Source: Planctomycetota bacterium (GTDB taxonomy: Bacteria; Planctomycetota; JAJSAM01; JAJVHW01). Taken from it: a stretch of DNA of 64,000 nucleotides. Location: contig CBDFJG010000004.1 of NCBI GenBank assembly GCA_965248445.1, positions 1,408,001-1,472,000 on the forward strand, read 5' to 3'. The position numbers were made by a program. This document shows positions 36,001 to 39,000 of the stretch, in pieces (positions within the stretch are counted from its first letter, which is position 1; the number at the start of each line of letters is the position of its first letter).

Positions 36001-39000
36001 AGGACGCCGCGGCCGTCCGTGCCGCTCCGGCAACTCTGATTCTAGCACTCCGCGGTCTTTGGCTACGATCTCGGCATGCGGGAGGGGTTGCCGCCGGAAG
36101 TTCCGGCGATCGTATTGGAGCGCGCCGAGGCGCTTGCCGAGGCGGTCGCACTGAGCGCATCGGAGCTGTCGGGACAGCTCGAATTCTCGACGTACAACTG
36201 CGCGGCGGTCGTGCCGCCCGCGTTGGTGGGCGAACTGGGTGTCGAGAAGGACCTCGTGAAGGCGGTCGTGCGGCGGGCGCTGCGCACGCGGCTGAAGTCC
36301 GCTTGGCCGGAGCGCCGCTACGAACCAGAGCGGCCCGAGGTCATCGTGACCGCGCGGTGTGGCGAGGCGCCGGTGGCCGAACTCGCGGCGCTGCCTGTCT
36401 ACGTGGCGGGGCGGTACATGAAGCACGCGCGTGGGCTGTCGCAGACGGTCTTCTACTGCCGGCGTTGTCGCGGTAAGGGACGACTGCGCGGTGCAACGTG
36501 CAGTCGATGCCGCGGCAGCGGGCGGTTCGTGGAGGAGTCGGTGGAGGACTTCGTGCGCCCCGTGATCGAGCGCGCGATGCAGGGGCGCGGCTCGTCGTTC
36601 CACGGAGCGGGGCGCGAGGACGTGGACGTGCGCATGCTCGGCACCGGGCGGCCGTTCGTCGTGACGGTCGAGAGTCCCCGGTTGCGCAGCGTGGATGCAG
36701 CTGCGGTGATCGCGGCCGTCGCAGAGGCGAGCGGCGGACGTGTGACGGTCGCTGATCTGGTGGTGGTCGACCGAGCCGTGCGCCGGCAGATCACCTCGGA
36801 GCACGGCGAGAAGGTGTACATGGTCGAGGTGCGTGCGGTCGGCGGAGCGTTGCCCGAGGGCGCCGCAGCGCTGCTCGCTCCCCTGTCCGGCGCGACGCTC
36901 TCGCAGCGGACTCCTCAGCGGGTCGAGGCGCGGCGTGCAGACAAGGTGCGGGAGCGCCGCGTGCGCGAACTCGAAGTGATCGAGTCGAGTGCGGATCGGC
37001 TGCTGCTGCGGCTGACGACGGATCCCGGGCTCTACGTTAAGGAGTTCGTGTCGGGGGACGACGGGCGGACCGTGCCGTCCGTGGCGGGGGCGCTCGGCAT
37101 TGCGTGCCTCTGCACGGAGTTGGACGTGGTGGCGGTTCGCTGAGGAGCGTCGCGGTGTGGTGGGGGCGTAGCGGGAGGCGAGGCGCGTCCATGCCGCTGC
37201 AGAAGCGGTTGTTGACCGCTTCTGCCCTCCGCTCCGGCGCTCCGCGTTCGCTCCTGCCCTACCGTCCACCGGACGCTGGGCTGCCGCTGTGCGGCACCGT
37301 CGCTCACCCCTCGCGCGCTGACGCGCGTGCTCGGGTCGCGGCCGTTCGCTCGGACCGGCGGGCGTGCGCTCTTCGCCGCGATCGCGCCTGCTCGAACTGA
37401 GTCCGCGCTGGCTGCCGGCGCGAGACCGCAGCGCCGGTCCTCGCTCACCCATCCCAAACCCCCGCCCACCCACTTGGGGGAGGACGCACGGGAAGTGGCT
37501 CTGGTTACGTGCGCTACTTGATCGTGTAGCTGCGCAGGCTGGCGGCCTTGTGGAAGCCGACCTTGCGCGCGAGCATCTCGCCGGCGCCGTCGCGGTTCGG
37601 GACGATGGCGCAGGCGAGGCGACCCTGGCCGTGGTGGGCCTTGACCAGGCGGCGCATGCAGGCGGTGGCGTAGCCCTGTCGACGGCTCTCGTCCTTTGTC
37701 GCTACGACCAGGCGTGCGTGATTGACCGACGTGTCAGCCGTCAGCGCGGCGCAGACGACTTCGTCGTTGATCACGATGCCGTAGCCGCCGCCGGCCATCA
37801 GCAGTTCGTTCACGGACTCGTAGGTGCGCAGAAGGCCCGGGATGCCGAGCGCCACGACGGAGTCGGCGTCGGCCAGACGCAGACGGCGGAGTCCCTCGAC
37901 GCGATCCATCTCCGGCGTGTCCTCGATGTCGGAGAACCAGACGACGGAGTGGCTGTCGGCCGACACACCGGCGTGGTGCTCCTCGAAGAGGGGCGCGAGC
38001 TCATCGCTGCAGAGCACCTCGACGGGCCCCGTGAGCGCGGCGAGGTACGTCGCGAGCGGGCCGTTCTCGACGTGACCGAACGCCCAGATCTGGTCCGGTA
38101 CTCCGGGCTCGCTCGGGACGCGAATCGCCACGGCGCCCGGCGCGCTCGGCGAGTCCACGTCGACAGTGCCGCACCTTGCGCTCCAGGGCGTGGAGCGGCG
38201 TGGTCGTCCACGGCGTGTCCGGCATGAACGGCCGCAGCGCGGGGAGCTGCTCCGTCTCGAGGGTCTTGAGAGTTGCTTCGCTCATGGTTTCAGTCCTGAC
38301 TGGCGGGAGACCCCGCCTCATTCCGATCGGGGCCTACGCCGCTGCGCTTGAGGATGAAGTCGAGGGCAGCCACGGTGTGCTCGTCGATGTAGACGTTGTC
38401 GTCCCGGCCGTGGCGGCGGGGCCGGGCGCTGCGTTCGGCGAACGCTGCCAGGGTCGCCGGGAGCTCCTCCGCGGCCTCTCGGCTCCGATCCGGGTCGTCC
38501 CAGGCGTCGAACGTGTCGTCGGCGTCCAGGATGACCTCGGTGGTGGTCCCCTCTTGCAGAGCTGCGACGCGGGTGTCGCCCAGCGCGGAGATGACCACGC
38601 TGTGAACGTCATCGATGTCGAACGGTCGTGTCAGCACCCGGTCGATGCCGGCGTGACGCGCCGGCGTGTCGTCGATGCCGTGACCCGGCTCGGCGAGCAG
38701 CACGATCCGGAGAGCCGGCCGGCTGCGACGGGCGAGCCGGCAGAGTTGCCAGCCGCTGTCGCGCCCGAGCGCGAGCTCCGTGATCAGTACGTTCAGCGAG
38801 TTGTTCGTCGTCGTGCCGAGGATCTTCGCCGCCTCCCCGTACGTGCCCACTCCGATCAACTCGACGCCGCGGCTCTCGAGGCCGCACCGCAGACGCTCCG
38901 CAATCCGTCCGTGCGCCGACACGTGCAGGATGCGCGGCGACGGTGGGAGCGCCGCGGAGCCGACGGTGTCCCCGGTCGAGTCGCTGCGCGCGTTGTATGC

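Follow-up and report, generated by a model that had tools for sequence, protein, structure and literature searches.

The window analysed here (a stretch of 64,000 nucleotides of contig CBDFJG010000004.1 from the planctomycete assembly GCA_965248445.1) carries an intact gene of the archaeal Pus10 family, in a genome where no TruB gene was detected. Its product is probably a functional member of this family that acts on tRNA as a stand-alone pseudouridine synthase, supplying the T-loop pseudouridine in place of TruB. Few RNA modifications are as widely conserved as Psi55 and the modification of U54, and the textbook division assigns them to TruB and TrmA in Bacteria and to Pus10 in Archaea and some eukaryotes. 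The preliminary description of the locus held that the literature regards Pus10 as absent from Bacteria, and this is indeed the view expressed in the accessible portions of reviews of 2021, 2023 and 2025, the first of which cites Fitzek et al. 2018, on Pus10 evolution, for its statement "not in Bacteria". No mention of a bacterial or planctomycete Pus10 was found in the literature covered by our search, a coverage that stops short of subscription journals and bioRxiv supplements.

A Pus10 orthologue in a planctomycete chromosome

The features of the locus are listed in Table 1. The protein matches Pfam Pus10_C with 184.8 bits (cut-off 27, E 2.4e-54) over model positions 1-231 of 232 and residues 109-354, and TruB_N is not among the Pfam matches of the 355 residues. 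Its whole-protein score against the NCBIfam equivalog "tRNA pseudouridine(54/55) synthase Pus10" (TIGR01213 / COG1258) is 286.6 bits, above the cut-off of 200, covering model positions 74-401 of 402. Human PUS10 (2v9k) is the sole PDB sequence match (E 1.1e-22), and the blocks GREDVDVR..LG.GRPF and Y.KEFV.GD.GRT align between the two proteins. It is also the best structural match of the AlphaFold model (pLDDT 96.5, pTM 0.91), with Z 25.8, rmsd 3.5 and 324 residues aligned (Foldseek E 1.9e-27); this alignment spans both domains, from model residue 2 to 355, and the structures of Cbf5, TruB and TruA align with residues 106-355 only (Z 13-14.6). The Pfam, NCBIfam and PDB matches therefore confirm the earlier reading of this frame as a 355-aa Pus10 orthologue.

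Table 1. Features of the pus10 locus (positions within the window).
Feature	Position	Strand	Description or basis
pus10	36076..37143	+	355 aa plus stop, ATG start; tRNA pseudouridine synthase, Pus10 family
N-terminal accessory domain, residues 1-105	36076..36390	+	Diverged THUMP type, without the archaeal/human Cys4 zinc module; hhalign, structure, archaeal profile
Catalytic pseudouridine synthase domain, residues 106-355	36391..37140	+	Pus10_C span; Cbf5/TruB/TruA structural alignments
Forefinger-loop CxxC...CxxC knuckle (C128, C131, C142, C145)	36457..36510	+	86-sequence alignment
Active-site motif GREDxD (G179-R180-E181-D182-V183-D184), catalytic Asp182	36610..36627	+	86-sequence alignment
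rnpB, RNase P RNA, bacterial class A, divergent from pus10	35622..36029	-	Rfam RF00010, 259.3 bits (gathering score 100), model 1-367 of 367
Spacer, rnpB 5' end to pus10 ATG, 46 nt	36030..36075	.	Gene coordinates

In a search of 5.8 billion proteins, archaeal Pus10 sequences are 37-44% identical to the window protein, and the nearest relatives outside the planctomycetes are archaeal (30-41% identity). Among the best 120 matches of either protein search there was no cultured, named carrier, and the named bacterial matches were all planctomycete MAGs. That this bacterial chromosome carries a genuine Pus10 orthologue is supported.

Conservation was scored over an alignment of 86 bacterial and archaeal Pus10 sequences. 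G179, R180, E181, D182 and D184 are invariant, giving the Asp with Arg at -2 and Asp at +2 that define the Pus10 active-site motif in the accessible part of PMC3753934, and H176, six residues ahead of Asp182, is nearly invariant. Y248, K322 and L349 are invariant as well and supply the core Tyr, Lys and Leu. Going by the order in which they occur and by how strictly they are kept, in an alignment composed of sequences other than that of M. jannaschii, they probably correspond to its Tyr339, Lys413 and Leu440. The same invariance holds for the four forefinger cysteines and for the thumb residues Q277, P280, R282, R287, R292 and R294, so that the two loops that flank the cleft are both recognisable. 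One thumb-loop His, invariant in the archaeal alignment (RVxHRRAD), is replaced by Ala in the window protein (RVEARRAD). Within the query clade alone (n=43), 53 columns are invariant. Family membership and intact catalytic residues are evident from the sequence, and the two-domain fold from the predicted model.

The N-terminal region

The protein had been described as shorter at the N-terminus than archaeal Pus10, which proved correct and can now be specified, as the missing part is a Cys4 module of ~70 aa. When hhalign compares the 43 sequences of the query clade with 34 of archaeal Pus10, residues 22-105 of the window protein pair with the archaeal THUMP region (residues 70-160 of P0058) in an alignment of probability 100 and E 1.1e-87, and the VIA-align alignment to human PUS10 begins at model residue 2. 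The accessory THUMP-containing domain of Pus10 is thus recognised through hhalign and the alignment of the whole protein with 2v9k, the Pfam model Pus10_THUMP_arc (PF22023) remaining silent even at E<=10. The archaeal Pus10 profile, in turn, matches only from profile position 72 and TIGR01213 from model position 74, and the N-terminal four-Cys zinc module is lacking. The open frame extends to 365 aa only, and rnpB lies 46 nt from the ATG, therefore the upstream DNA cannot encode a longer N-terminus. The idea that the module is encoded by a separate gene was also considered and rejected (tblastn with seven archaeal N-termini, best E 0.16 among the matches listed).

Judging from these alignments, the window Pus10 appears to keep a diverged THUMP domain and to be without only the N-terminal Cys4 module, an arrangement that we present as new. 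In the accessible parts of the published work, the M. jannaschii N-terminal zinc-site mutant C106A/C109A retained both activities in vivo (PMC3753934, PMC7912444).

Pairing with rnpB and native character of the gene

The head-to-head pairing of rnpB and pus10, which we also present as new, was found in 9/9 clade genomes examined, across two families; the divergent pair is present in 7/7 query-clade loci and in G013. Alignment of nine of the spacers reveals an ATTCTA / TATCAT-like word ~10 nt from the rnpB end, for which a promoter role may be proposed; a consensus promoter scan of positions 35100-37600 returned 0 sites. The only RNA runs found, four (X1-X4) of one marine metatranscriptome study that are available as contigs only, match positions 35668-36069 as short pieces with many differences, and none covers pus10. 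They were set aside as evidence on the expression of this locus and correspond to conserved rnpB parts of other organisms.

The gene lies on a 2.04-Mb contig, where bacterial rnpB and rho flank it on one side and a GNAT gene follows on the other, and its G+C (0.69-0.73) matches that of its flanks. The contig, the G+C, the neighbours and the rnpB synteny show that pus10 is a native gene and not contamination. The idea of a functionless gene, be it one acquired horizontally in recent times or now in decay, or an assembly contaminant, could draw on the archaeal affinity of the nearest non-planctomycete relatives (30-41% identity), but it is barely credible, given the composition shared with the flanks, the long contig with adjoining bacterial genes, the intact frame, the catalytic residues invariant in 43 clade members, and the synteny with rnpB kept across two families.

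Missing TruB and U54 methylases

Six-frame searches covered the genome of 5,403,930 bases in 4 contigs (92.1% complete, 0.17% contamination, not closed). The best match of TruB_N (PF01509) had E 0.81 and fell within an RluD-like ORF, the same search detecting TruB in 14/14 control genomes; TIGR00431 (TruB) gave zero matches, and tblastn with the TruB proteins of a sister-family genome and of another planctomycete reached E 1.5 at best. The absence of TruB reported in the preliminary description was therefore reproduced with Pfam and NCBIfam models and with tblastn, at the completeness given above, and a genome devoid of the original gene, as a displacement presupposes, was found in the case of TruB. 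That a TruB gene escaped the searches, through a location in the 8% of the genome left unassembled or a divergence beyond the reach of the models, is very improbable. The incomplete assembly would allow it, as would the diverged, split TruB-like matches (E 1e-12 to 1e-20) that a small number of the phylum's other families show, but the genome consists of 4 large contigs, the models and both planctomycete TruB proteins drew a blank in it, and TruB is found in 0/13 genomes of its own family (f1) and a related one (f3) vs 4/4 of the remaining family of the order (f2).

Synteny was of no help in this respect. The nusA-infB-rbfA operon of this genome stops at rbfA, followed by a convergent lpxB, but the sister genome G001, which bears TruB, has this gene flanked by an ABC transporter and an alcohol dehydrogenase and not after rbfA, and the rbfA-truB argument for a loss is therefore worthless. 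A "scar" matching the truB neighbourhood of G001 was likewise discarded, its neighbour genes being scattered in the window genome.

The claimed lack of a U54 methylase gene was upheld by three concordant searches of this genome: PF05958 (TrmA-type) reached 14.2 bits, below its cut-off; TIGR00137 (TrmFO) matched only at model positions 2-33 with ~13 bits; and GIDA retrieved only N-terminal Rossmann pieces, the best spanning model positions 1-150 of 391. For TrmY (COG1901, PF04013), which methylates Psi54 in the m1Psi54 pathway, nothing was found in this genome at E<=1, with the control scoring above cut-off in 3 archaea. A lone marginal GCD14 match (25.5 bits), considered as TrmI (m1A58), was dismissed as a generic CbiT/PIMT-like methyltransferase. 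Five RluA/RsuA-family synthases (PF00849) and one TruA are encoded.

Distribution of Pus10 and TruB in the order and the phylum

In the order (17 genomes), Pus10 occurs in 11, TruB in 4 and both in 0, which reproduces exactly the counts and the mutual exclusion first described. Pus10 is present in 7/8 genomes of the window genome's own family, that genome included, in 4/5 of f3 and in 0/4 of f2. At the scale of the phylum, a sample of 401 genomes contains 62 with Pus10, 203 with TruB, 3 with both (G057, G083 and G350, the last a single 9.2-Mb contig) and 139 with neither, a state seen in 74/243 of its high-quality genomes. No TruB is visible in 59 of the 62 Pus10 carriers, and of the 19 families in which Pus10 occurs, 17 have no carrier with TruB.

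The proposal of a non-orthologous displacement of TruB thus stands in part. The exclusion within the order and the missing TruB of this genome agree with it, but the genomes with neither enzyme show that TruB loss needs no Pus10, and those with both that the exclusion is not absolute. In the former, Psi55 could be dispensable or made by a third enzyme, which could also act in the window organism; in the latter, by analogy with humans, Pus10 may have another role. The association of Pus10 with the lack of an m5U54 methyltransferase has to be qualified in a similar way: it describes this genome, but the absence is not tied to Pus10, as TrmFO is found in 0/17 genomes of the order, the TruB-bearing family included, and a PF05958 RumA/TrmA-type gene is present in 5/5 genomes of f3, 4 of them with Pus10.

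Substrate and proposed mechanism

The predicted tRNAs offer the expected target, since among the well-folded ones (n=48) G53-T54-T55 is found in 47/48 and A58 in 48/48. According to the accessible parts of PMC3753934 and PMC7912444, every tested Pus10 makes Psi55, those of M. jannaschii and human also Psi54; a 17-mer T-arm suffices as substrate; and in E. coli cells without TruB and TrmA, M. jannaschii Pus10 forms Psi54 as well as Psi55. The substrate of the window enzyme would then be tRNA U55, with or without U54, and Pus10 would compensate for the TruB loss. An archaeal-style T-loop in this bacterium remains a prediction.

In the mechanism that we propose, the catalytic domain would grip the T-arm stem-loop between the thumb loop and the Zn-knuckle forefinger loop; U55, and possibly U54, would be flipped out of the G53-U54-U55-C56-R57-A58 loop, and the flipped base isomerised by Asp182. 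The acceptor/CCA end may be held with the help of the diverged THUMP domain. The T-loop pseudouridine that is the product of TruB in other bacteria would be supplied here by Pus10, because the truB gene is absent, and a shared function would lead one to expect the negative association seen with TruB, in the order as in 17/19 families.

It is also conceivable, if unlikely, that Pus10 is no substitute for TruB, and that it makes Psi54 only or acts on another T-loop-like RNA (tmRNA, rRNA), Psi55 being absent or made by another synthase, e.g., of the RluA/RsuA family. Indeed, of the 401 genomes sampled in the phylum, 139 are without either enzyme and 3 contain the two together, the genome encodes five PF00849 synthases, and U54 is free of competition, as there is no U54 methylase gene. 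Moreover, in the accessible portion of PMC3753934, the M. jannaschii forefinger segments ffl1/ffl2 are required for Psi54 and dispensable for Psi55, and the window protein keeps what M. jannaschii requires for Psi54 (a full-size forefinger loop, R180, Y248, L349 and the His at -6). Nevertheless, that same portion gives Psi55 as the activity common to all characterised Pus10 enzymes and describes no M. jannaschii mutant that lost Psi55 but kept Psi54, and the negative association with TruB is strong in the order and in 17/19 families. A Pus10 that provides the T-loop pseudouridine in place of TruB therefore remains our preferred reading.

Origin and significance

In a quick tree, the planctomycete Pus10 sequences split: a group of 36 rows joins Iainarchaeota with a support of 99, and the query clade (18 rows) and four further planctomycete lineages are placed elsewhere. 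A single planctomycete clade was not rejected by an AU test (delta lnL 17.2, p-AU 0.17; 61 rows vs 54, with the group chosen after seeing the tree). We infer an archaeal origin of this Pus10 through an old horizontal transfer, and vertical inheritance is the best explanation for pus10 within the order of the window genome.

TruB serves as a marker gene in scoring the completeness of bacterial genomes and in building reference trees; to the extent that it does, its lineage-wide absence would bias such figures for Planctomycetota. With Pus10 in ~15% of the sample, TruB in about half and neither in about a third, the phylum breaks the division of these enzymes between Bacteria and Archaea. It constitutes a natural experiment on the need for Psi55 at all, on what decides between Psi54 and Psi55, and on the replacement of a core translation-related gene through horizontal transfer. 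It also raises the question of a minimal Pus10, as it holds Cys4-less forms, forms with a partly recognisable N-terminus and catalytic-only forms.

A more speculative scenario, to which we give some but limited credit, is that the tRNA elbow has been remodelled archaeal-style in entire lineages of Planctomycetota. An archaeal Pus10, possibly acquired more than once, would write Psi54 and Psi55 without TruB or a U54 methylase; within the order of the window genome, pus10 would have been fixed head-to-head with rnpB, so that one bidirectional control region would serve tRNA 5' processing and T-loop modification; and the 35% of genomes with neither enzyme would have a third solution.

Comparison with known systems

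The closest known system is archaeal Pus10 (TIGR01213, Pfam Pus10_THUMP_arc and Pus10_C), with M. jannaschii and P. furiosus as the species in which it has been studied. The window protein shares with it the catalytic domain with its GREDxD motif, the core Tyr/Lys/Leu, the His at -6, the four-Cys forefinger and a homologous THUMP region. In contrast to archaeal Pus10, it lacks the first ~70 residues with the invariant C18, C21, C59 and C62, its THUMP is too diverged for Pfam, and it has Ala for the archaeal thumb-loop His, 10 instead of 4 residues between the forefinger Cys pairs, and a bacterial host without the TrmY partner.

Human PUS10 (2V9K) exceeds the window protein in size (chain of 467-530 residues), its accessory domain is expanded and it has an N-terminal zinc site; its identity to the window protein is 21-26%, and an 18-residue gap at the knuckle in the sequence alignment makes its forefinger that much shorter. 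Bacterial TruB presumably has the same product (Psi55 in the T-loop) and has the superfamily core fold in common with the window Pus10 (Z ~13 over the catalytic domain), but it belongs to another family, is without the forefinger loop according to the accessible part of PMC3753934, and has TruB C-terminal domains (PF16198, PF09157) in place of THUMP.

The THUMP-less Pus10 proteins of other Planctomycetota (~275-305 aa), found in the TruB-less families f7 and f84, and the short Pus10 of Iainarchaeota (DPANN) are also without the Cys4 module and have the catalytic domain and the forefinger knuckle in common with the window protein. However, the THUMP-less proteins start at profile position 160-164 and consist of the catalytic domain only, keep the thumb-loop His, carry a short acidic C-terminal tail and form a separate tree group with Iainarchaeota, and rnpB adjoins their gene in 0/5 loci scanned (L020, L023, L047, L051 and L056).

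Identification and predicted structure of the bacterial Pus10

The pus10 gene of the window encodes a real bacterial Pus10, which has lost the zinc module and retained the THUMP domain. Pfam Pus10_C matches residues 109-354 with 184.8 bits (model 1-231 of 232), and the NCBIfam equivalog TIGR01213, 'tRNA pseudouridine(54/55) synthase Pus10', matches residues 27-354 with 286.6 bits (model 74-401 of 402; cut-off 200 bits). Human PUS10 (2v9k) is the sole solved structure matched by sequence (E 1.1e-22), and the alignment takes in the catalytic block. The preliminary description of this ORF is thus borne out. 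The gene lies on a 2.04-Mb contig and has the same G+C (0.69-0.73) as the flanking DNA. Reviews from 2021, 2023 and 2025 state that Bacteria lack Pus10, and literature searches retrieved no paper on a bacterial Pus10.

Features of the pus10 region (window positions)
Feature	Position	Strand	Remarks
rho, transcription terminator Rho	33647-35179	-	NCBIfam 467 bits on residues 145-506
rnpB, bacterial class A RNase P RNA, full length	35622-36029	-	Rfam, 259 bits
pus10	36076..37143	+	ATG start, 355 aa
GNAT gene	37514-38158	-	
Large hybrid sensor histidine kinase, 1036 aa	38290-41400	-	HAMP, PAS, HisKA, HATPase, receiver domains

The AlphaFold2 model, built on an 86-row alignment (pLDDT 96.5, pTM 0.91), retrieved 2v9k as the top Foldseek match (E 1.9e-27, TMq 0.76). 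In VIA-align, residues 2-355 of the model were superposed on 30-520 of the 2v9k chain (Z 25.8, rmsd 3.5, 324 residues aligned), whereas the runners-up Cbf5, TruB and TruA (Z 13-14.6) were confined to residues 106-355. Therefore, as modelled, residues 1-105, folded as helix, strand, two helices and two strands, are a predicted PUS10-type accessory domain. PF22023, the Pfam archaeal THUMP family, gave no match in this protein even at E<=10; the model does match archaeal Pus10 (residues 72-158) and gives a weak match in a sister subclade. In a profile-profile comparison, positions 22-355 of the query clade (that of the window's protein, 43 sequences) corresponded to 70-407 of archaeal Pus10 (34 sequences; probability 100, E 1.1e-87).

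In contrast to archaeal Pus10, the protein is devoid of the first ~70 residues, the site of the archaeal-invariant C18, C21, C59 and C62. This module cannot be encoded upstream of the gene, since 46 nt lie between rnpB and the ATG, and the stop-to-stop frame comprises 365 aa. A tblastn search of the genome with seven archaeal N-termini found no separate gene for the Cys module among the matches listed (best E 0.16).

TruB, U54 methylases and tRNA substrates in the same genome

The assembly comprises 5,403,930 bases in four contigs (completeness 92.1%, contamination 0.17%). In six-frame searches of it, TruB_N, which matches in 14/14 control genomes, reached a best E of 0.81 within an S4 and RluA-type ORF, and TIGR00431 (TruB) gave no match. 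Two lineage-specific TruB probes, one from the sister-family genome G001 and one from the more distant planctomycete G350, reached no better than E 1.5 in tblastn, whereas the control probe, Pus10 from G350, retrieved the gene of the window (E 1.6e-38). Synteny with rbfA was rejected as evidence of truB loss: the nusA-infB-rbfA operon of this genome stops at rbfA and is followed by a convergent lpxB, but in the TruB-bearing G001 truB is not behind rbfA either, being flanked by an ABC transporter and an alcohol dehydrogenase. Searches for RluA/RsuA-family and TruA synthases found five genes of the former and one truA.

Regarding T-loop methylases, the same six-frame approach found no gene for PF05958 (TrmA/RumA type; best 14.2 bits), only N-terminal Rossmann pieces for TrmFO and GIDA, and nothing for TrmY. 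An RlmD/RlmC-type rRNA m5U methylase is likewise not found, as there is no PF05958 gene, nor is a full-length GIDA/MnmG, the best match spanning model positions 1-150 of 391. A single marginal TrmI candidate was a generic methyltransferase.

ARAGORN predicted 56 tRNAs, the two oddest being probably false calls, and 48 have good acceptor and T-stems. G53-T54-T55 is present in 47 of these 48 and A58 in all of them, and most tRNA genes of the genome encode CCA. These are ordinary T-loops, on which either TruB or Pus10 would be able to act. ARAGORN also called a tRNA-SeC gene (contig C2, 455518-455613), a hint at selenocysteine use by the organism.

Distribution of Pus10 and TruB

In the order (17 genomes), Pus10 is present in 11 genomes and TruB in four, with none having both and two having neither. 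Across 401 genomes sampled from the phylum, there are Pus10_C matches in 67, of which 62 are strong (E <= 1.2e-41); the remaining five, weak, partial and all in TruB-bearing genomes, are probably cross-hits. TruB matches 203/401 genomes. From a reading of the two match tables, three genomes have both (G057, G083 and G350) and 139/401 neither. Among the 243 high-quality genomes, Pus10 was found in 36, TruB in 134, both in one and neither in 74. The 62 carriers are spread over 19 of the 104 family codes, and 17 of these 19 families contain no carrier showing TruB. Families f7 (12/12 and 0/12) and f24 (11/11 and 0/11), for example, have Pus10 throughout and no TruB, and in f15 TruB is present in 4/23 and Pus10 in 0/23. 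As related genomes are not independent of one another, these counts are given as plain tallies. They show a clear negative association that does not amount to a rule, and TruB is frequently missing without Pus10 being present.

Pus10 is intact in all three TruB-bearing carriers. In G350, a single 9.2-Mb contig bears both TruB (L112) and a Pus10 (L113) on a long branch. In some families of the phylum TruB_N is matched only weakly, at E 1e-12 to 1e-20 and in part of them in two pieces (G072, G079, G096, G246, G211, G284 and G298), and these may have a diverged TruB-like enzyme; four of these seven genomes also show weak Pus10_C cross-hits at model positions 120-203.

Taken together, action on the tRNA T-loop is very probable for this protein, and its most likely role is that of a stand-in for TruB. 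The displacement proposed in the preliminary description agrees with the mutual exclusion within the order and with the failure to find TruB in this genome, is weakened by the three genomes with both and the 139 with neither, and is best called plausible rather than proven. The claim that a U54 methylase is missing holds for this genome. Nevertheless, this lack is not coupled to Pus10, because TrmFO is found in 0/17 genomes of the order and PF05958 in 9/17: 5/5 in f3, 3/7 in f1 (the family of the window's genome, itself left out) and 1/4 in the TruB-bearing f2.

Genomic context

The pus10 gene is divergent from rnpB, head-to-head and 46 nt apart. This arrangement was found at 7/7 query-clade loci (L029-L035) and in the f3 genome G013, with spacers of ~20-90 nt; the pair is kept in 9/9 clade genomes examined, and rnpB adjoins Pus10 at 0/9 loci from other planctomycete Pus10 lineages. 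Being present in both families, the pair is older than the f1/f3 split, and this age argues for long vertical inheritance. The absence of Pus10 in G014 may be an assembly break, since the contig begins 166 nt upstream of rnpB, exactly in the expected place of pus10. No Pus10 lies within 1.5 kb upstream of rnpB in G010 (76% complete), and no remnant adjoins rnpB in the TruB-bearing G001 and G003. An ATTCTA / TATCAT-like word recurs in the spacers, ~10 nt from the end of rnpB. Since a consensus promoter scan of this region gave no promoter, co-regulation of the two genes is speculation. The nearby Rho has a Gly- and Arg-rich N-terminal extension of ~140 aa.

Carriers, N-terminal grades and origin

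A one-genome-per-species scan retrieved 413 relatives, the best 80 comprising 39 Planctomycetota, 39 archaea, one 'uncultured bacterium' and one 'Paracoccaceae' MAG contig. The Pus10 of the latter (L085) neighbours L107 within the planctomycete clade of catalytic-only forms, and the contig is probably mis-binned. The hit list of the protein search displayed a step: 45 clusters at 48-59% identity with Pus10_C as sole annotation, then archaeal proteins at 37-44% also annotated with Pus10_THUMP_arc. Where sources name them, they are 'tRNA pseudouridine(54/55) synthase Pus10' or 'tRNA pseudouridine synthase 10'.

The N-terminus was graded by running the archaeal Pus10 profile on stop-to-stop frames of 55 bacterial rows, none of which reached profile positions 1-68. 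Where THUMP was detected in the query clade and f16, the match starts at 69-81 (72-81 in five query-clade rows, 69-71 in f16); three more query-clade rows match from 138-159 only. Families f65, f24, f87 and f40 start at 109-135, and the large f7 and f84 clade at 160-164, that is, with the catalytic domain only (shortest open frames 283-311 aa). Pus10 of Iainarchaeota (DPANN) and some unnamed archaea is shortened too (start 70-148; L039, L042, L043, L046, L054, L079, L097-L099, L103, L105, L108), the remaining archaea starting at 1-12.

In a quick IQ-TREE reconstruction of the catalytic domain (LG+C20 PMSF, 115 rows, 281 columns), 36 rows of short planctomycete forms clustered with Iainarchaeota-type archaea (SH-aLRT 99); the shortened archaeal forms named above are placed with the catalytic-only clade. 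A polytomy, several of its lineages on long branches, holds the query clade (18 rows, support 99), four further planctomycete lineages and a range of archaea: Thermoplasmatota, Methanobacteriota, Bathyarchaeota and rows lacking a label, some source-named Halobacteriales or Methanomicrobiales. A single planctomycete clade was not rejected by the AU test (delta lnL 17.2, p 0.17). We infer that transfer, in one or several events, ran from archaea to bacteria, because the family is broad in Archaea.

Active site and comparison with archaeal Pus10

In the alignment of 86 bacterial and archaeal homologues, which holds no M. jannaschii sequence, the GREDxD motif (G179, R180, E181, D182, D184), Y248, K322 and L349, the thumb-loop residues Q277, P280, R282, R287, R292 and R294, and four cysteines (C128, C131, C142, C145) are invariant, and H176, at position -6 relative to the catalytic Asp, is nearly so. 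According to Joardar et al. (2013, PMC3753934), both activities of M. jannaschii Pus10 require Asp275 and Leu440, while Psi54 alone depends on Arg273, Tyr339 and a forefinger loop of full size; P. furiosus Pus10, with forefinger deletions, produces Psi55 only. The same study describes the His at -6 as substituted in Thermococcales only, an N-terminal zinc-site mutant as retaining both activities in vivo, and a 17-mer T-arm as an adequate substrate for the M. jannaschii enzyme. By these M. jannaschii criteria, the sequence of the window's protein would have the features of a Psi54-competent enzyme. It differs from archaeal Pus10 in the thumb loop, where the His invariant in the archaeal alignment (RVxHRRAD) is replaced by Ala (RVEARRAD), and in the forefinger, where the Cys pairs are spaced by 10 residues instead of the four of the archaeal proteins.
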